Below are positions 2,411 through 57,359 of a stretch of DNA of 64,000 nt, in pieces. The stretch lies in the IMG/VR virus record IMGVR_UViG_3300021426_000079, positions 1-64,000 of that record; one strand, given 5' to 3'. Origin of the DNA: a virus (lineage: Duplodnaviria > Caudoviricetes). The translations under genes and the position numbers were made by a program. The notes under the pieces were generated by a model. It saw nothing but the letters and a program-made list of their open reading frames with translations. It was not told the origin of the DNA and searched no databases. How positions within the stretch are numbered: position 1 is the first letter of the stretch; each line of letters begins with the position of its first letter.

Positions 2411-3526
2411 TCAAGATGCCATGCACGCTGTGTCCTCGTTCTCCGCGCTCTCTGCTTCCTCTGTATTCTCTACAGTCTCCGCATCCTCTGCGCCGCTGTA
2501 CGTGTCCAGAAACGCCGCCAGTGCGCTGTTTCGCTTATTAATACTGTCATTACTTGCCACTGCATTGCCTGCCGCTTCCAGATACTCAGCAGGTACATCA
2601 GCAAAGAAGTCAATCACAAATTCCTCAAACTTCTCTACGCGCTCGTCATGATCTTCGTACTTGCTCATGTACTTTTCCGCAAACGGCAGAAGTGATACAA
2701 AGTGCGTTTCCGTATAGAGTTTACGTGCAACACCTTTTTCGTTGTCGTCCGTCAACATAGTATGTACATCATGCATAAACTGGAATACATCAGCAATGTG
2801 TGCATACTCTTCATCTGCGATTTCCGCGCTCTCCACAATGGGAGTAAATGTCTTTGACTTGAACGACAGTTCGCTAATCTCGCCATACAGCATACACCAC
2901 GACTTCATTACCAGTGCAACATATGCTTTGTTTTCGCGCGCCTTATCGGATTCCATCTCGTTAATCAGTTCGTTATCCTTCGCAAAGTCAACAATTCTTT
3001 CCAGTTCGTTGCACTCTGCAAGCATCTTGTTTTTGCTAGACAGCGGCTTGCCATTATTCAGCCGTTTAAACAGTTCCTTTTCCTCGCCGAAAGTCAGTTC
3101 ATCAAAATACATTACTGACACTGTATAGTCTTTGATAACATCCTGCAAACTTTCGGGCAGTTCGCTGAATTTCTTACCATTCGGATCGTACTGGAATGGT
3201 TCATCGCTCATATCGTCAATGGTAACTTCGCCAATGCCAGTCAGTTCGTACTCGTCATTCAGATACTCAATGATAGCAGTGAGTCTCTGTTTTCCATCCA
3301 TAATAACATAGGTGTTATCTCCGCGCGCCTCGCTGTTGATATGCTTCCGCGCGTAGATGTTGGGAATAGGATAGCCAATCATCATACTTTCGATTAACTT
3401 TGATTTGCGCGTCTTTTCCCAAACTTCTCCACGCTGTACAATGTGACCAAAATCCAATCTGCCGCGCTTGCTCATTCCTGCAATCTGCTTTGCCGTCCAT
3501 ACGATGTTTGCTCTGTTAAGTGACAT
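2411..3526 (-). CDS. DUF262 (ParB/Srx-fold, GmrS-like) domain protein
   Basis: QRGEVW, IESMMIGYPIP, DGKQRLT and FKRLNNG motifs. Confidence 0.8.
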   Translation of the reverse strand: MSLNRANIVWTAKQIAGMSKRGRLDFGHIVQRGEVWEKTRKSKLIESMMIGYPIPNIYARKHINSEARGDNTYVIMDGKQRLTAIIEYLNDEYELTGIGEVTIDDMSDEPFQYDPNGKKFSELPESLQDVIKDYTVSVMYFDELTFGEEKELFKRLNNGKPLSSKNKMLAECNELERIVDFAKDNELINEMESDKARENKAYVALVMKSWCMLYGEISELSFKSKTFTPIVESAEIADEEYAHIADVFQFMHDVHTMLTDDNEKGVARKLYTETHFVSLLPFAEKYMSKYEDHDERVEKFEEFVIDFFADVPAEYLEAAGNAVASNDSINKRNSALAAFLDTYSGAEDAETVENTEEAESAENEDTACMAS

Positions 3527-4182: not shown

Positions 4183-4330
4183 CGCGCGCGCACCTCCCTC
4201 TTGATATATATGATTATACCATATGCTATCGAATATGTCAATACCTAAATTTAATTATTTTGTCGCAAGATAAATGAATATCCACACGACAAAACCGATT
4301 ATCAGCTTGTCCAATGGTCGCGCCTCCCTG

Positions 4331-4654
4331 TCAAAAATCCACATCGTTAGTGAAACGATCATCACTCTTGACTATATCGCGCACCACATCCAACGGAATG
4401 TTAAAATCTTCACAATGTCCGATTTCTCCATTTCGTTTCACGCTCTTACATTTTGGCATCCCATTTGCCGCGCCGCTTGCAGTGAATACGATTCTCCCTG
4501 TTTCAGCTTCCACGATAACTACATCTTTAGTTTTTGGCGTATTGCTCAAAGCCCACAATTCCGATTGCGCATAGCCTATAGAAGTCATTGTCGTATCAAC
4601 TTTGCCTGTCTTCTTGCTAAATCTGAATGTTACATAGTGATTAAGTTTATCCAT
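4331..4654 (-). CDS. hypothetical protein
   Basis: RBS plus promoter cassette. Confidence 0.75.
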   Translation of the reverse strand: MDKLNHYVTFRFSKKTGKVDTTMTSIGYAQSELWALSNTPKTKDVVIVEAETGRIVFTASGAANGMPKCKSVKRNGEIGHCEDFNIPLDVVRDIVKSDDRFTNDVDF

Positions 4655-4734
4655 CGTTCGCGCCTCCTATGTGCCGTGTTTTGTTTTCTGTGCTCTTATT
4701 ATAGCATATGCTATCGTGTCTGTCAAGTGTATAT

Positions 4735-4935
4735 TTATACATTTTTCTGCATAAATACTCTATCGTCGTCGTCTTCATCTACCACAACGATTTCATATAC
4801 TCTATCAAAATCAATGTGGATAGACTGCGATCTCAAAATCCGCATCTGATTATTATATGCCAGTGTAGGATTGCCAGTGTTCCAAACTTTAGAATACATC
4901 ACATTGCCGCAAACATCACAAACTTCTGTTCTCAT
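4735..4935 (-). CDS. hypothetical protein
   Basis: RBS plus promoter cassette. Confidence 0.7.
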   Translation of the reverse strand: MRTEVCDVCGNVMYSKVWNTGNPTLAYNNQMRILRSQSIHIDFDRVYEIVVVDEDDDDRVFMQKNV

Positions 4936-5008
4936 ATCACACCTCCATTGTGCTGTCTTGCTTGTTTGTACCTACATTGTACTACTAACATATGCTATAT
5001 GTCAAGCA

Positions 5009-5200: not shown

Positions 5201-5290
5201 TGATTTTTCCTCCTATGTGTTGTGCTTGTTTTGTTTTCTATGCTTGCATTATACCATATGCTATGCAAGCTGTCAAGTGTTTTTTGAAAA

Positions 5291-5464
5291 TTATTTATTA
5301 AATTTCCATTCGTGACACTTCGCCAGTGCTTCACGCTGATTCCGCGCCTCTGCGATTTTCTCATATCCTACCGCGCGCAATTCCTGCTCTGAATATTTTC
5401 CGATTGCGAACACTGCATACGCTGTAATGTTTTCCTTAACTGATTCATAAATATCATATCTCAT
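5291..5464 (-). CDS. hypothetical protein
   Basis: MRYDIYE start after GGAGG and promoter. Confidence 0.7.
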   Translation of the reverse strand: MRYDIYESVKENITAYAVFAIGKYSEQELRAVGYEKIAEARNQREALAKCHEWKFNK

Positions 5465-5616
5465 ATCGTTGACCTCCGATCTGTATTCCTTGCTTCTGAT
5501 ATAAATATAGCATATGTTATCTCCGCTGTCAAGTGTTTTTCGGAAATATTTTTCAAGATAATTACTCATAGAATGGCATATACATTGCCGCATATGCCAG
5601 ACTATCAATCATTATC

Positions 5617-9807: not shown

Positions 9808-9836
9808 TTGACAAACAATATAATCTATGTTATAAT
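9808..9836 (+). promoter_or_regulatory. consensus sigmaA promoter
   Basis: TTGACA-17 nt-TATAAT with an extended TG. Confidence 0.75.
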
Positions 9837-10383: not shown

Positions 10384-10412
10384 TTGACATGCGAACATAA
10401 ATGTGTTATTAT
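10384..10412 (+). promoter_or_regulatory. sigmaA promoter of the rightward operon leading to the RNAP gene
   Basis: TTGACA-17-TATTAT, followed by CCATATG. Confidence 0.65.
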
Positions 10413-11919: not shown

Positions 11920-14900
11920 ATGGGAAAGTATGGAATTGAAATACGCAATATACCTGCGGCGCAGATATACGAAGTAAATAATGGCGTGCGCGAATACTTC
12001 ACTTCTACCAAAGCGATGCTGAATAACAGTCTGCTTCTGGACTTTTTGCAGACGCACGGACTGCGCACTTACAAGGATAAATCAACGCGCGATATCGTGT
12101 GTATCTCGTTTGACTATGGATCAAAGAGTTACAAGGAAGAGCGCAAGCGTGTGAAGAAACTGCTCGACGGCGCGCAGACAGATGAACGGCGACAAGTCTT
12201 CACTGATGTATTGGTGAAGGTAGACGCTAATCAAGCACGGTACGACAAGAAGACGCGCGAGGAACTGCGCACACTCTTCTACTCGCAAGGTGTGAACATC
12301 ACTTGGGTCGAGAAATATCGTGACGGCACGATTAAGCGCGAGGAATTGATTCATTACCAGATGCTCTTCCGCTCTCCTGCCAAGGCAAAACAGGGCGCGT
12401 GCTTCTTCATCCGCGACAAACTCTATGATGCGACGCATGAGTGGATGACTCTTGGTATTCAATTACCAGAAGAGAACGCGGACATTGTTGGCATATCAGC
12501 GTATCAATCTCTGGCGGCGAGTACAATTGTCGGGCGCGTGCGCATCCCTATGGAGAAGATACTGATTGTAAAAGACGAGGATTCTTTCTACAAGACGATT
12601 GCGGATGTAGTTAAAGCCGAGGATTACGTGCCGAACGCGAAGAAACCGAATGAAGTCAAGAAGCGGTGCGTGGTCGTGCGCGAGGAAACCGAAATCAAGA
12701 ATACGCTTTGGGACGGCATGGGGCTGTGCGAAGATACGCTGTACCCGAATAAGCAGTGTGGCATGATGCTTCTGCGTAACCGTTTCTTTAAGGCGTGTAT
12801 GTTCAAGACTCACATTCAGAAGTTCTTCCGCGACTGGTGCGCGCAACACGGCGAAAATTACGAAACTTATGAAGTGCAGGATATGTTTGGCGTTTATCAC
12901 AGACTGTGCGACATTGAGGTAATTACCACTGAAAATGCAATCAAGTGGAAGAAGTTCGTGAAGTATATGGGCGGCACTCCACAGGCGGCGTATGAATATT
13001 GGTGCGCGAAACTGCGCGAGGACAACTGCACATTCGGAATTGTCAAGACAGACCATCCGAGTAAACTTGGCGAATATCAGCAGATGTCATACCAGATGAT
13101 TAATACGCTCCCTTGCACGAAAGACGAACTGCGCGAGATTATGGCTGATACTGTCAACTATGTATCTGACTTGAAGAGTAATCCAGAAGTCTTCGCGGAT
13201 TTTGCGCGGCGCAACGCAACCGAAGTGAACAACTACTCTATGCTTGCGGATATGTACAAGAATATCAAGAACATCGAGTTCAGCGACTGGTATCGGCGGC
13301 AACGGACTCTGGCAGTACAATCCTATGTGCGCAACCTGCGGCAAGGCAAAGTGGTCGTTAAAGCGGACAATATGACGATTTGCGGCAATCCGTTCGGTTT
13401 ACTACTGAAAGCCGTTGGCGATTTCAATGGTATTGATTCGTGCTTTGAGGATAAGCCAGATGGCGCGATTAACTGCTACTGTCCGAGATTTGCAGACGGA
13501 GAGATGCTTGCAGGATTCAGAAATCCGCACAACTCGCCGAATAATGTAGTGGCATTGAGAAATAAGCATCACCAGATATTTGACAGTTACTTTGCATTGA
13601 GTAACAACATCATAGCGATTGATTGTATTCATACAGATATACAAGCAAGGCTGAATGGAGCAGACTCAAATCGGGGTCGGTTCAGTGGAAACACTGTTCA
13701 AAAACTATTCGGTGAAAACTGGAAGGCTTAACTGCTAATCAGTTACTAAGCCAGACTGTTAAAGGCAGACTGGAAAGTTCAGAGACTAGGCGTTGAGGAA
13801 TACAATAATACGCCCAAGAGTGCCGAATACAATTACCTATAGGGTAATTTGAGCGACTTGCAATCGCAAAACCTAACGTTAAACGAGGGTAAAGAGATAG
13901 TCCGACACTCCGTTGAAAAGCGGAGAAGCGTAGGATAAAGAGCCTACGATATAACACAATGTCGATTCAGACTTTTGCTTTGTAACTAATCAACCAACCA
14001 TTGTCGAGTGCGCGAAACGATGCTATCGAGATTATCCGACAATCGTAAATGCACTGAATGAAAGCGGGGTGACTTACAGTAACACACTTGCCGACTATGC
14101 GCTGATGGATAACAACTTCTCCAAGAGCAAACTTGGTATCGGTTGGTCGTCGAATATTGCGCAACTTGCCATGTCTTATTACTGGACAGAACTTTATAAG
14201 GACGAGTCAGAGCGCGACGGCGAAACGCTGAAACAGTTCTACGATGTGTTCGTTATCATGTCTGTTATTGCGCAGGTAATCATCGACAGTTGCAAGCGGC
14301 TGTATGAAGTATCTGGTATGGATATCATTCGCCAGATTCAGTCCATGCCGTGTATGCAGATTGTCGAGGCTGACGAGCGCGACGAGGATGTAGTTCACCG
14401 CAAAGACTTCCCGAAGTTCATGAAGTATACGCGAACGGTTGACATAATGCGAGGAGGCAAGATGCGTCCACAGGAAGATATCGCGGCAGACAAGTACAAG
14501 ATTCGGCGGCGTATCAATTACTCCTTCTCCTGCCCTATGAACTGGTCAGAAGAGATACTGGACGAAATACCGATAAGCACGAAGGTTGAAGGTATTCCCA
14601 TTGCGGAGTTCATCAAGCCTATGAGTGGCAAGCCGAAGTACAAGCAGATAACCAGAGTAGTCGAAATGGCGAACGACCTGCAAGCGCAAGTCAATAAGTA
14701 TATGGCGCAGTTGAACGCGACGGACGATGACAATGAAAAACAGTTTGTGATGGAAGGTATTGAGAACGCTTATACAGAAATCGAGAACAAGTTGAAGTCA
14801 ATGCGATCTATGAGTCAAGCTACAATGCACACGCTGATTGAATGGTGCTTCAATATTCAAGACGGTAATATTGCCACGAAGGAACTGCGGCGCATGATTA

Positions 14901-14980
14901 GCGCGAACTCAAACACGATATTAAACCTGCTTTACCGGACGAAACCGATGGGATTTTTCGACAACTTCAACACGCGCTGA
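11920..14980 (+). CDS. YonO-like single-subunit (RdRP/QDE-1-related) phage RNA polymerase; spliced join(11920..13666,13962..14980), 921 aa
   Basis: RSPAKAKQG, WDGMG, RNRFFK and RNPHNS motifs; splicing restores GADFDSDF; exon 2 carries IGWSSNIAQ and IIDSCKR; SPbeta-like position upstream of the late genes. Confidence 0.85.
13667..13961 (+). ncRNA. group I self-splicing intron (295 nt, no homing endonuclease ORF)
   Basis: 5' exon ends in U and intron ends in G; P1 GACU/GGUC; P10 AAUCG/CGAUU; P7 strands AGAGACUA (13781) and GAUAGUCC (about 13896); removal restores frame and motif. Confidence 0.88.
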
Positions 14981-51987: not shown

Positions 51988-52160
51988 GGCTTTATCCATT
52001 ATGGAAGATTAACCAAATGCTCATATATTTCTACACTCTTGGAGTTGAAATACTCCTATATCCGCCATTATTGGTTAGGTGAGTGAACATTCTCGCTAAC
52101 ATCCAGAACGCAAAGCGGTCGCACCTACGCTCTGGTAGAGGATAAAATGAAATATTATCT

Positions 52161-53300
52161 ATGAATATAGTTAAGAAACAATATAAGTATCTCTACCGAC
52201 AAGTCACTGACGAAAAAGTTATTCGTGAAGCATATAAGAATATGCGAAAGTTTAAAACAAAACGGAGAGAGATACAAGAGATTGACCAGAATCTAGACGC
52301 TTGGGTTATACACATGAAGACGATGCTTGAAAATACCAAACCAGACGGTATTGCAGAGCATCCAGAATTAGCGTTCAAGCCTCCGAAACATGAGCCAAAA
52401 ATCGTTGAAGAATTTGGAAAACGTAGAGAAATATATGTTCCGAGCATTGAAGAGCAATGGGTTCACCACATTATTATTTTGGTATTAAAGCCTATACTGC
52501 TTGCCAGATTTCACGAACACAGCTTCGGGAGCATACCAGATCGAGGCATACACAAAGGCAAACGGCAGATAGAAAGATGGATTCAAAAGAAACATCCAAA
52601 GTTCTTTTTCAAAGGCGATATCCGTCATTTCTATGCAAGTATACAAGTCGGTCTTCTGATTCAGAAACTAGAGGAATTTATCAAGGATGATTGGTTCATT
52701 TATTTGATAAAAGTATGCTTTACATATTTTAACAAAGGTCTTCCGCTTGGCTATTACATTTCGCAATGGTTTGGAAATTTATTTCTGGAAGATTTGGACA
52801 GACTTATATATTCGGAAGGATTTGAACACATAAGATATGTTGATGATATTGGCATAATATCAAACAATAAACGCAAGCTATACCGTCTGGTAGATAAAAT
52901 AAAAGTCATGCTAGGACATCTGCGGTTGAAATTAAAGAATAATTGGCAGATATTCCGTATCAGAAAACATCCTATTGATTTTCTTGGATTTACATTTTAT
53001 GAAAACCGTACAGTTATCAGAGGAAGAATTGTAAGAAATATATTGCGATGCGTACACAAAATTAAAAGGTGTAAAGAAGAGCATCGGCATATCTGGATAA
53101 AACTTGCCAGAACACTATTATCATACATGGGATGGATAACACATTCTGATACATACGAATTTTATTTACGGAACATTAAAACTTATGTACGTATTAGTAC
53201 ATTAAAGCGCATAGTCTCAAAGAGAGACAGAGAGGAGCATAAACGTGACAGCATGGAGAAAAACAGAGTCTTTGGACAAACCGCAATCGCTTGCGCTTGA
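52161..53300 (+). CDS. DGR reverse transcriptase
   Basis: KGDIRHFYASI, GLPLGYYISQWFGN (SQ motif), RYVDD, DFLGF. Confidence 0.93.
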   Translation: MNIVKKQYKYLYRQVTDEKVIREAYKNMRKFKTKRREIQEIDQNLDAWVIHMKTMLENTKPDGIAEHPELAFKPPKHEPKIVEEFGKRREIYVPSIEEQWVHHIIILVLKPILLARFHEHSFGSIPDRGIHKGKRQIERWIQKKHPKFFFKGDIRHFYASIQVGLLIQKLEEFIKDDWFIYLIKVCFTYFNKGLPLGYYISQWFGNLFLEDLDRLIYSEGFEHIRYVDDIGIISNNKRKLYRLVDKIKVMLGHLRLKLKNNWQIFRIRKHPIDFLGFTFYENRTVIRGRIVRNILRCVHKIKRCKEEHRHIWIKLARTLLSYMGWITHSDTYEFYLRNIKTYVRISTLKRIVSKRDREEHKRDSMEKNRVFGQTAIACA

Positions 53301-53591: not shown

Positions 53592-53731
53592 GAGCGATTT
53601 ACTAAAACGTTATTAGTTTACATAATTCATTAAAACTCCTTCGGAACATATAAATTTATGTTTGCTTTTATTCCTGTTTTGTGATAATATAAAAGCACAG
53701 ATAAATGTATGTTTGTACTCGGAGGAGTTTT

Positions 53732-54739
53732 GTGAATTCAGATAACATTGTTGATAACGTTGTACTAAAGTGTTCGGCGCGGCTCTCTCAGCCAGACTTG
53801 CAGTTCGTCAAGAACATGCTTGTCGGAGAACTGAGTAAATATAAAATTACCATTGAAGAGACTTCTATAATTCCGTATGACGGAAAGTATCAGCGCATGG
53901 TTGACTTGTATGTTGCGTCGCGGTACATGGAAGGGCTTGCAAAGAAAACGTGCAATCTTTATCGGTTGCGGCTCACAGACTTCGTGAATCACTTAACCAA
54001 GCCGCTTGAAGATTATAAGCCGATGGACATATCAGAGTATTTGGCTAACTTTTCGACGACGCATCCTGTGAGCAAAAGTACGCTGAATGGTGTGCGTGGA
54101 ATTATCTGCACATTCTTCCACTGGTTAAGTGCGAAGGATTACATTGATAAAGACCCCGCGCGTGCCATCACTCCAATCAAATATAAACGCGCTCGGCGCA
54201 AGCCGCTGACTGACGACGAATTAGTTCAGCTTAAAACTGGCTGTCGAGATACGCGCGACAATTTGATTATATCTATGCTGTATGAGACCGGATGTCGAGT
54301 TGGAGAAATCTGCGGCGTAAAAATCAGCGATATTGATTTGGAGCGCAAAACAATGGTGGTCACTGGCAAAGGCGACAAGACGCGGCGAGTGTACTTTCAA
54401 GCTGAAACTGGCTACTGGATTAAGAAGTATTTGCAAGAGCGCGGCGACGACTGTAGTGAGTATTTGTTAATAAAGCAAGGTAAGAACAAAATTAAGAACG
54501 CGCCGCTTACCACGGTTACCATTAACCAAGTTGTAAAGGATATTAAGACTAACGCGAATTTGAAAGCAAAATGTACGCCTCATGTATTGCGGCACACTTA
54601 CGCGACAGACCTATTGAAACATGGCGCGGATGTTACGAATATCCAGAAGTTACTTGGTCATGCTAATATCGTAACTACAATGATATATGCTGATGTCGAT
54701 ATGAGCAATGTTGAAGCTGACTATCGCAAGCATATTTGA
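53732..54739 (+). CDS. XerD-like tyrosine recombinase
   Basis: ETGCRVGE, GKGDKTR, HVLRHTYAT, LLGHANIVTTMIY; GTG start after GGAGGAG. Confidence 0.9.
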   Translation: MNSDNIVDNVVLKCSARLSQPDLQFVKNMLVGELSKYKITIEETSIIPYDGKYQRMVDLYVASRYMEGLAKKTCNLYRLRLTDFVNHLTKPLEDYKPMDISEYLANFSTTHPVSKSTLNGVRGIICTFFHWLSAKDYIDKDPARAITPIKYKRARRKPLTDDELVQLKTGCRDTRDNLIISMLYETGCRVGEICGVKISDIDLERKTMVVTGKGDKTRRVYFQAETGYWIKKYLQERGDDCSEYLLIKQGKNKIKNAPLTTVTINQVVKDIKTNANLKAKCTPHVLRHTYATDLLKHGADVTNIQKLLGHANIVTTMIYADVDMSNVEADYRKHI

Positions 54740-55985: not shown

Positions 55986-57359
55986 ATGGTACAAATGAAG
56001 AAACTGATTAAACGTATCGCAGTGGCGTTGCTTGCATTTACAATGCTAGTGCCGACTACTGTGTACGCGGACGCTTTCGGAATTGATGTATCTGCTTGGC
56101 AGTCTAACATTCAGATTGAGAATATGTCTGCTGATACTCGTTTCGTAATCGTCAAGGCGACGGAAGGTACGAACTACGTTTCTGGCTCGTTTACCAAACA
56201 GTCGAACGCGACTTTGGCAAGTGGGCGTAAACTGGGTATCTACCATTTCGCAAACGGCGTATCAAGTGCAGAAGCAGAGGCACAGCATTTCGTGCAGACA
56301 ATTCAGCCGTATGTTGGTAAAGCGATGCTCGTCCTCGATTGGGAAGACCGTCGGGCATTTGCGCGCGGAACATCTTACGCGAAAACTTGGTGCGATACAG
56401 TCTATCGTCTGACTGGCGTAAAGCCTGTGATTTATACAACGGCAAGCGTGACGCGAAGCTATGACTGGTCGGCAGTCGCCAACGCGGGTTACAAGCTGTG
56501 GGAAGCAGGATATCCGTATGTATCTACTTGGTATGGATATAAGAATCTTGGTCAGCCGCCTTACACTGTGTATTACTTCGGCGCGCCTTTGATGTGGCAG
56601 TATTCGTCCACTACAATCATCAGCGGCTATGGCAGTCGGCTTGATGTCAACCTGTGGTATGGAGATATTGCGAATTGGGACAATTACACGAAGTCCACGA
56701 ACAGCGCGGCTTCAACGGAGCAACCTGCTAATCCTGCTAAGATTCCGATTCAGGACGCGAACATCGACAAGTCTTCTGTGCTGACTCTTGTAGTTGGTGT
56801 GGCGAAGGGGACATATGGTTCGGGGCAAGTGCGTAAGGCTCTGCTCGGCGACAGGTACAATGAGGTCACTGCGTTTGTAAATCACATTTACTATGCTGAT
56901 ACCAACACGCTTGTCAATGAAACTCTGGCAGGTAAGTATGGTTCTGGTGAAACGCGCAAGACTGTCCTCGGAATGGCGAATAGATATAACGCTGTGCAGT
57001 CTGCGATTAATGCGCGCTTGAACACGACTACAACTGCGGCGAAGAAATCTGTGCATGAAGTCGCACTTGAAATCGTGCGCGGTACTGGCGGTTGGGGCAA
57101 CGGCTCGACCAGAGTAGCAAAGCTGAAAGCGGCGGGATATGACGCGACTGCTGTTCAGAATGAAGTTAATGCAATTCTGTCTGGTAAATCTAATACGACT
57201 GCAAAGACTACTGCACTCACCTACTATCGCATACAAGCAGGTGACTCTTTAAGCAAGATTGCGGCGCGTTATGGCACGACAGTTTCTCGCCTTGCGAGTG
57301 TGAATGGAATTACAAATGTAAATCTTATTCGCGCAGGACAGACAATTCGTATTGCGTAA
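55986..57359 (+). CDS. endolysin: signal peptide + GH25 lysozyme + CW_7 repeats + LysM
   Basis: GIDVSAWQ, KATEG, GIYHF, LDWE, WQYSS; G.YGSG..RK repeats; GDSLSKIA...NLIRAGQ. Confidence 0.9.
   Translation: MVQMKKLIKRIAVALLAFTMLVPTTVYADAFGIDVSAWQSNIQIENMSADTRFVIVKATEGTNYVSGSFTKQSNATLASGRKLGIYHFANGVSSAEAEAQHFVQTIQPYVGKAMLVLDWEDRRAFARGTSYAKTWCDTVYRLTGVKPVIYTTASVTRSYDWSAVANAGYKLWEAGYPYVSTWYGYKNLGQPPYTVYYFGAPLMWQYSSTTIISGYGSRLDVNLWYGDIANWDNYTKSTNSAASTEQPANPAKIPIQDANIDKSSVLTLVVGVAKGTYGSGQVRKALLGDRYNEVTAFVNHIYYADTNTLVNETLAGKYGSGETRKTVLGMANRYNAVQSAINARLNTTTTAAKKSVHEVALEIVRGTGGWGNGSTRVAKLKAAGYDATAVQNEVNAILSGKSNTTAKTTALTYYRIQAGDSLSKIAARYGTTVSRLASVNGITNVNLIRAGQTIRIA

Follow-up and report, generated by a model that had tools for sequence, protein, structure and literature searches.

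We analyzed a 64,000-nucleotide (nt) stretch of DNA (the window; positions 1 to 64,000 of the IMG/VR record IMGVR_UViG_3300021426_000079) that is part of a 97,496-bp phage record with direct terminal repeats, and we describe a group I intron at 13667–13961 that splits the gene for a predicted YonO-type RNA polymerase. This gene is the first of a rightward block that continues with genes for a PhoH-like protein, an exonuclease, the terminase large subunit, the portal, a 2721-amino-acid (aa) tape measure and tail proteins. It appears as two open reading frames (ORFs). The 603-aa ORF (11920–13731) runs to ...DIQARLNGAD, continues with 21 unrelated residues, SNRGRFSGNTVQKLFGENWKA, and ends at a UAA stop, and a downstream frame, open from 13955 to 14980, includes DSDFCFVTNQ and reads ...DSDFCFVTNQPT.... 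An earlier note on this DNA had placed a group I intron within 13657–13975, and a scan with Rfam covariance models identified one there: the group I intron family RF00028 matched 13657–13925 on the plus strand over the full model (1–253) with 59.9 bits (gathering score, 50; E = 1.1e-12), and was the sole Rfam family above threshold in the window.

Removal of the 295 intron nucleotides joins GAC TTC GAT TCA GAC, which encodes D-F-D-S-D, and the two exons of 1747 and 1019 nt then make up 2766 nt, or 922 codons, for a protein of 921 aa. The predicted spliced junction joins the end of exon 1, GGAGCAGACT, to the start of exon 2, TCGATTCAGAC, as GAC U/UC, and the insertion point thus lies after the first base of the codon next to the first catalytic aspartate, D582. 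When the intron is retained, the exon-1 frame passes through P1 and P2 and then the 5' strands of both P3 and P4 (13667–13731) before it reaches the UAA. The intron lacks an endonuclease ORF, as the earlier note had stated; its sole internal ORF is an antisense frame of 72 aa without a Pfam match.

The boundaries were fixed by alleles without the intron, which were found by searching 5.8 billion proteins with exon 1 and comparing the junction at the protein level. P0002, a single protein of 921 aa, showed 98% identity to exon 1 (residues 1–582) and, over its residues 582–921, 98% identity to exon 2, and its junction reads ...ARLNGADFDSDFCFVTNQ..., with NGADFDSDF as predicted. Because gene callers do not splice, P0002 represents an uninterrupted gene in another assembly. 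Its 90%-identity cluster contained four intronless 921-aa alleles (P0002, P0273, P0276 and P0281, with 12 contig sightings), the last three of which also read NGADFDSDF, together with five 603-aa alleles that share an identical read-through tail (19 sightings: 7 contigs for the allele of the window and 12 for four variants) and the matching exon-2 products of 291/303 aa. The intronless alleles came from several independent assemblies and were 98 to >99% identical at the amino-acid level; P0273, for example, differed from exon 1 of the window at 4 of 582 residues. These results confirm the splice sites that had been proposed, and the comparison with intronless homologues revealed single 921-aa alleles and no two-subunit split at the site. 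They also reveal a presence/absence polymorphism at a conserved target site, the pattern by which mobile introns are recognized, and since alleles with and without the intron share one 90% cluster at such identity, the intron is dispensable. More distant homologues in metagenomic phages of GenBank are likewise intronless (MT835887.1, a 966-aa ORF; MT835469.1, a 956-aa ORF), and the longer match of 3039 nt in a further relative, L079, contained no intron when checked.

The helices of the intron were derived from the Rfam alignment, the minimum free energy (MFE) fold and direct reading, and each pair was checked by script (Table 1). All derived helices (P1, P2, P3, P4, P6, P7, P7.1, P8, P9 and P9.2) consist of standard pairs only, and the splice-site U, the terminal G and the P1, P10 and P7 pairings on which the earlier note had relied were all found intact. 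P1 has a possible extension (13658–13661 with 13680–13683). P7 was 100% paired and near-invariant across six related introns, and its crossing with P3 forms the group I pseudoknot. Subgroup IA, the usual type in phages, carries the extra elements P7.1 and P7.2 between P7 and the 3' strand of P3. The corresponding interval in the window holds one covarying hairpin, and a second (P7.2) was not identified there; the hairpin suggests an extra element of the subgroup-IA type and a phage IA-like intron.

The intron region was more stable than its shuffled versions (MFE z-score, −3.2). Covariation was evaluated on six introns without an ORF, namely the window intron, L135, L165, the second intron of L001, L137 and L147; the set is small since a regular expression written for the intron's 5' half matched only 7 of 115 loci. 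RNAalifold recovered P2, P3, P6, P7.1, P9 and P9.2 from these six, with compensatory changes in 34 of 48 predicted pairs. When the window structure was projected on the alignment, 83% of the cells paired versus 30–48% with slid partners, and double changes occurred in 30 of 66 pairs versus 6–14 in the slid versions; none of 500 shuffles reached the observed values. A 3' intron signature (ATAGTCYGA, 20–35 nt, GGATAAAGAGCC) was present in at least 110 IMG/VR contigs, and in fact more, from many environments. Judged by this signature, the intron subtype is widespread far beyond the YonO-type polymerase family; among the signature matches listed (loci L088–L197), six lie in the same polymerase family, at the codons of the aspartate triad.

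Sequence searches gave little information on the interrupted protein itself. Pfam, which has no model of the family, returned nothing above threshold for either exon; in PHROGs, exon 1 belonged to phrog_8308, whose function is unnamed (E = 3e-73), and exon 2 matched nothing; and a megablast of the gene against deposited phages yielded no match. Querying the PDB by sequence, first with exon 1 and then with the profile of the family, gave no meaningful match either; the polymerase was identified only through a fold search and hhalign. When a profile built from 24 diverse full-length relatives was compared with YonO of SPbeta (AF020713), the two aligned over 384 columns with a probability of 95.2%, E = 2.8e-8 and approximately 24% identity, and NGADFDSD stood opposite LQFDNDGD. 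The DNDGD triad of YonO within this segment has been shown by mutation to be catalytic (PMC5467207). The same profile aligned at 98.9% with a protein of Enterocloster phage PMBT24 annotated as "RNA-dependent RNA polymerase", where the triad stood opposite NGCDFDGD. An AlphaFold2 model of the 921-aa protein (predicted local distance difference test score, pLDDT, 85; predicted template modelling score, pTM, 0.79) matched QDE-1 (E = 1.6e-11) and RDR2 (E about 1e-11) in Foldseek. VIA gave Z scores of 18–19 for QDE-1 and RDR2, with a root-mean-square deviation of about 4.0 Å over about 610 residues, 15.8 for the single-chain phage polymerases P32 gp64 and P74 gp62 and 11 for P23-45 gp96, and gp66 of the crAss-like phage phi14:2 was also matched. 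Residues 480–595, which end in the triad, matched double-psi beta-barrels as well as the largest subunits found in cellular polymerases.

D582, D584 and D586 were invariant among the 24 diverse relatives, and D-x-D-x-D was kept in 87 of 87 full-length relatives. The earlier note had contrasted DFDSD with a canonical DFDGD; the motif does read DFDSD, but DFDSD or DEDSD is the family consensus and the serine is not peculiar to the window copy. R151, K155 and K157 were also invariant among the 24 and are, by their conservation, candidates for the basic residues of the second, beta-like barrel. Taken on profile alignment and the predicted fold, the interrupted gene is a YonO-type single-chain two-barrel RNA polymerase, and the earlier claim of a YonO-like enzyme with a split catalytic DxDxD thus holds. 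The family comprises 1190 cluster representatives and 260 IMG/VR loci.

To place the window intron in this family, 270 cluster representatives were fetched and the end points of N-terminal fragments were tallied in P0002 numbering (Table 1). Fragments that end at residue 580, 582 or 584 were found in 36 of the 270 clusters, which gives three insertion points within approximately 12 nt of the DxDxD codons, and two further sites lie elsewhere in the gene. The DNA of relatives contained real introns at two of these insertion points: at site B, the site of the window intron, in L135, and at site A, 6 nt upstream, in L165, L101, L175 and L001 (first intron). In the site-A introns the P1 guide is altered to GCUC, which matches the exon sequence GGGU. 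Three of them carry endonuclease ORFs, with HNH_3 in L001, NUMOD4 and HNH_3 in L101 and NUMOD1/NUMOD3 in L175, and such HNH/NUMOD genes in related introns at the same motif are the signature of a selfish homing element. The polymerase gene of L001 (MT837385.1), the closest GenBank homologue at 41% identity, is interrupted by two introns (4271–5001 and 5276–5550), the second of which is free of ORFs, Rfam-positive (77 bits) and 103 codons further downstream. The 21-codon read-through of the window gene compares with two codons in most site-B relatives, whose tails read DSI or DSK before the stop. The 97.5-kb genome gave no HNH, HNH_3 or GIY-YIG match, and a homing endonuclease encoded in or near the intron was not found. 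When the intron was compared with deposited phages by blastn, matches were confined to the conserved 3' core of 35–67 nt (J8/7-P7-P9), in Felix-O1-like and crAss-like phages.

Table 1. Intron, exons, ribozyme elements, promoters and family insertion sites. Positions are those of the window; family sites are given in P0002 residue numbering.
Feature	Position	Strand	Basis or remark
Exon 1	11920..13666	+	Residues 1–582 and first base of codon 583; ends GGA GCA GAC T
Group I intron, without ORF	13667..13961	+	295 nt; Rfam, covariation (six related introns), intronless alleles
Exon 2	13962..14980	+	Starts TC GAT TCA GAC; last two bases of codon F583, residues 583–921
5' splice-site U	U13666	+	Last base of exon 1
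Terminal (omega) G of intron	13961	+	Junction fixed by intronless alleles
UAA closing exon-1 frame	13729..13731	+	21 codons inside intron
P1	GACUC 13663–13667 with GGGUC 13674–13678	+	U13666-G13675 wobble at 5' splice site; Rfam alignment, MFE fold
P10 / internal guide part	13669..13674 AAUCGG with 3' exon UCGAUU 13962–13967	+	Direct reading
P2 hairpin, GAAA tetraloop	13684..13695	+	4/4 pairs covary
P3 5' strand	13706..13714	+	Partner 13821–13829; 96% of cells paired, 4 compensatory pairs
P3 3' strand	13821..13829	+	Rfam alignment, RNAalifold, pair check
P4-P5	13717–13744	+	P4 = 13717–13722 with 13739–13744
P6/P6a	13745–13778	+	P6 pairs covary
P7 5' strand	13782..13788	+	G, bulged A13783, GACUA; partner 13898–13903; pair check
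P7 3' strand	13898..13903	+	UAGUCC; pair check, 6-intron alignment
P7.1 hairpin between P7 and P3'	13789..13814	+	30-nt insertion vs Rfam consensus; 3/5 pairs compensatory
P8	13832–13848	+	Rfam alignment, MFE fold, pair check
Peripheral hairpins	13853–13889	+	Periphery common to L135
P9	13908–13925	+	6/7 pairs compensatory
P9.2, loop AUAAAGAG	13929–13948	+	4/6 pairs compensatory
Near-consensus sigma-70-type promoter, TG	9808..9836	+	12/12; consensus match only
Near-consensus sigma-70-type promoter, TG	10384..10412	+	11/12; consensus match only
Site A	Last matched residue 580		Fragments end ...NG; 6 clusters
Site B (window intron)	Last matched residue 582		Fragments end ...NGxD, then S..; 18 clusters
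Site C	Last matched residue 584		Fragments end ...DxD, then L/F..; 12 clusters
Second hot spot	Last matched residue 686		Fragments end ...ILSVLA; 7 clusters
Third hot spot	Last matched residues 768–771		2 clusters

Outside the window, the same genome contains a sub-threshold group I match (G000:C1:81657–81893, minus strand, identical to L005:1501–1737, minus strand; 39 bits, E = 7e-10 for the genome). It sits between two co-linear frames, and the downstream frame matches the NTPase and finger domains of DNA polymerase III alpha from profile position 104. The DNA polymerase III alpha gene is thus probably split by a second intron, and at most two introns were detected in this genome.

In the model that we favor, the host polymerase would probably transcribe the polymerase gene from the upstream consensus promoters, and the intron RNA would fold and excise itself in two guanosine- and Mg-dependent transesterifications. 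The spliced mRNA would encode the 921-aa enzyme with an intact D582-F-D584-S-D586, and the unspliced mRNA would give only the 603-aa product with one of the three aspartates. Homing endonucleases target conserved, constrained DNA and thereby place introns at the catalytic motifs of essential genes, and relatives of the window intron may have spread in this manner through endonucleases aimed at the highly conserved DNA that encodes DxDxD. The ribozyme would make such an insertion phenotypically silent, the endonuclease gene would often be lost later and the intron would stay optional, a course that is standard for group I introns of phages and that fits all the observations. The window copy either lost its endonuclease or never had one, and would persist because splicing works. 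We therefore consider it very probable that 13667–13961 is an optional, selfish, endonuclease-less group I intron at the conserved catalytic site of a YonO-type polymerase.

Several points weigh against this conclusion. The Rfam score of 59.9 lies just about 10 bits above the threshold. The covariation comes from six sequences, one of which was itself the source of the structure, and it is supporting rather than decisive evidence. The case for splicing is drawn from sequence and structure, and translation of the 21-codon read-through, which passes through P1–P4, could interfere with folding of the ribozyme. Finally, with no endonuclease in the intron or the genome, mobility at the present day can only be presumed.

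Three other explanations were weighed. The 603-aa and 291/303-aa products listed by gene callers might be genuine subunits of a polymerase encoded by two separate genes with a spacer, and split beta/beta' genes are usual in the multisubunit polymerases of jumbo phages (PMC2919709, PMC7824862). The spacer, however, is a group I ribozyme, and the split falls inside a codon between catalytic aspartates. Moreover, exon 2 has neither a start codon nor a ribosome-binding site at the junction, its first in-frame start would give a product without the last two aspartates, and uninterrupted alleles exist, so that a two-subunit enzyme has practically no probability. It is also very unlikely that the intron no longer splices and that the polymerase gene is dead, as in a decaying prophage copy. 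Such decay would accord with the missing endonuclease, the moderate Rfam score, the frame that reads 21 codons into the ribozyme core and a CheckV completeness of 62%, but both exons are intact and 98–99% identical to uninterrupted alleles without a frameshift or stop, and P1, the U-G wobble, P7, P10 and the omega G are all preserved. In addition, the same intron-bearing allele occurs on 7 contigs and four variants occur on 12 more, and the record has direct terminal repeats. The two-subunit split and the pseudogene were both rejected on the basis of the ribozyme spacer, the intact exons and the uninterrupted alleles.

The third explanation takes up the earlier note, which had suggested that lytic commitment might be subject to a metabolic checkpoint through the intron. 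In this reading, splicing would be rate-limiting and would sense guanosine triphosphate (GTP), Mg or the translation state, and would thereby gate the polymerase, late transcription and entry into the lytic cycle. The full-length enzyme could be obtained only from spliced mRNA; the gene, like yonO of SPbeta, stands at the head of a block that includes terminase, portal and tail genes; and the phage carries an integrase and is temperate. Splicing could furthermore be coupled to translation by the long read-through, and in T4, intron splicing in vivo is dependent on translation and on the state of growth. Alleles without the intron (>99% identity), however, are about as common as those with it in the same cluster, the insertion point shifts among three nearby positions, relatives carry HNH/NUMOD endonuclease genes in their introns and a second probable intron lies in the DNA polymerase III alpha gene; this is the pattern of selfish insertion into conserved sites, and no feature specific to regulation was found. 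The coexistence of alleles with and without the intron and the shifting sites suggest that no checkpoint role is needed, and we regard the checkpoint as unlikely and not supported by these data. A related version, also improbable, is that the endonuclease-less intron was co-opted as a gate whose splicing efficiency depends on translation and GTP status through the 21-codon read-through. If this were true, host physiology would tune the amount of active polymerase, and hence the switch to structural genes after prophage induction, in strains that carry the intron. The evidence as a whole favors the selfish, optional intron.

Classical phage group I introns lie in td, nrdB and nrdD (sunY) of T4, in the DNA polymerase genes of SPO1, SP82 and Bastille and in bnrdE/F of SPbeta (cited in PMC11620839 and PMC5746245). 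They are small ribozymes of the IA type, to which the window intron may also belong, and like it they have a U before the 5' splice site and a terminal G, occupy highly conserved codons of essential enzymes and may be present or absent in closely related phages; some copies contain a looped-out HNH or GIY-YIG endonuclease ORF and others have none. The window intron differs from them in the class of its host gene, and has no close sequence relative among deposited phages. The earlier note was fair in stating that phage introns are best known in other genes, but published examples also exist for RNA polymerase genes of phages (PMC11620839, PMC2919709). In the Pseudomonas jumbo phage PhiPA3, a group I intron with the HNH endonuclease gp210 interrupts a gene for a beta subunit of the RNA polymerase (Birkholz et al. 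2024, PMC11620839). There, too, the intron splits a phage polymerase gene of the two-barrel type beside conserved aspartates of the catalytic region, and relatives of the window intron also carry HNH endonucleases. The PhiPA3 enzyme is multisubunit, however, and the intron there codes for an active endonuclease that serves in competition between phages, whereas the window gene is of the single-chain YonO type, split in the beta'-like aspartate triad and without an endonuclease. In 201phi2-1, a mobile intron separates gp273 and gp274 of the beta-like subunit, and the protein runs as one band, that is, spliced (as cited in PMC2919709). The likeness lies in an intron of the mobile kind within the gene for a phage RNA polymerase, and the difference is that the enzyme is a multisubunit one of a Pseudomonas jumbo phage, interrupted at a different site.

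YonO of the Bacillus prophage SPbeta (Forrest et al. 2017, PMC5467207) is likewise a single polypeptide (approximately 840–920 aa for the two enzymes), homologous by profile and with the aspartate triads aligned, and its gene is directly upstream of and co-oriented with structural genes. On the other hand, yonO is uninterrupted, its triad is DNDGD and identity is approximately 24%, and the window enzyme is known from sequence and a model only. The crAss-like phages of the Delta and Zeta groups are described as rich in introns and inteins, with a LAGLIDADG intron endonuclease in the transcription gene block (Yutin et al. 2021, PMC7886860). They resemble the window phage as gut phages with group I introns in core genes, including the transcription block, but they are podophages of Bacteroidota with giant virion polymerases, whereas the phage analyzed here is a temperate siphophage with a Lachnospiraceae-type host and at most two detected introns. 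No published description of an intron in a YonO-type gene was found in the literature searched; to the introns already known in other phage RNA polymerase genes, the window element adds one in a gene of this type.

These findings bear mainly on annotation and on homing. Gene callers split the polymerase into "hypothetical proteins" of 603 aa and about 300 aa, and Pfam has no model for it, so that annotation of Lachnospiraceae-type gut phages, which form a very large family, misses both the polymerase and its introns. The DNA encoding DxDxD in YonO-type polymerases is a recurrent landing pad for introns, and the family is suited to the study of homing-site evolution, endonuclease loss and intron-mediated competition between phages. 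The understanding of the mechanism of group I introns or of YonO-type polymerases is unchanged by the finding.

Both extended −10 promoters, the perfect one at 9808–9836 and the near-perfect one at 10384–10412, precede the polymerase gene where the orientation of the genes changes from leftward to rightward, and by their sequence it is likely that the gene is read by the host polymerase. By analogy with YonO and from the gene order, the polymerase may in turn transcribe the late genes. The window also encodes a tyrosine integrase (53705–54739, plus strand) and an endolysin with GH25, CW_7 and LysM domains (55986–57359, plus strand), which together indicate that the phage is temperate and infects a Gram-positive host. 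Homologues of the polymerase gene were found in genomes of Lachnospiraceae (among them Eisenbergiella tayi, E. porci and Lachnospiraceae bacterium CE91-St56), and these prophage homologues fit the host indicated by the integrase and the endolysin. We conclude that the phage is a temperate siphophage with a Lachnospiraceae-type host.

Other elements were observed in the window and in relatives. In the leftward, early-looking block, the ORF at 2411–3526 (minus strand) contains a GmrSD_N domain (restriction endonuclease N-terminal; E = 2e-18). A reverse-transcriptase element is present at 52032–53300 (plus strand), where RT-4 RNA (RF03025) scored 73.3 bits, which falls 0.2 short of the gathering score, immediately ahead of the RVT_1 reverse transcriptase ORF at 52161–53300 (plus strand). 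In larger relatives (contigs of 94–206 kb), GOLLD RNA follows the homologous polymerase gene at a distance of about 2 kb; it was detected with 153 and 188 bits at L079:7953–8426 and L080:7567–8041, respectively, with tRNA arrays alongside.

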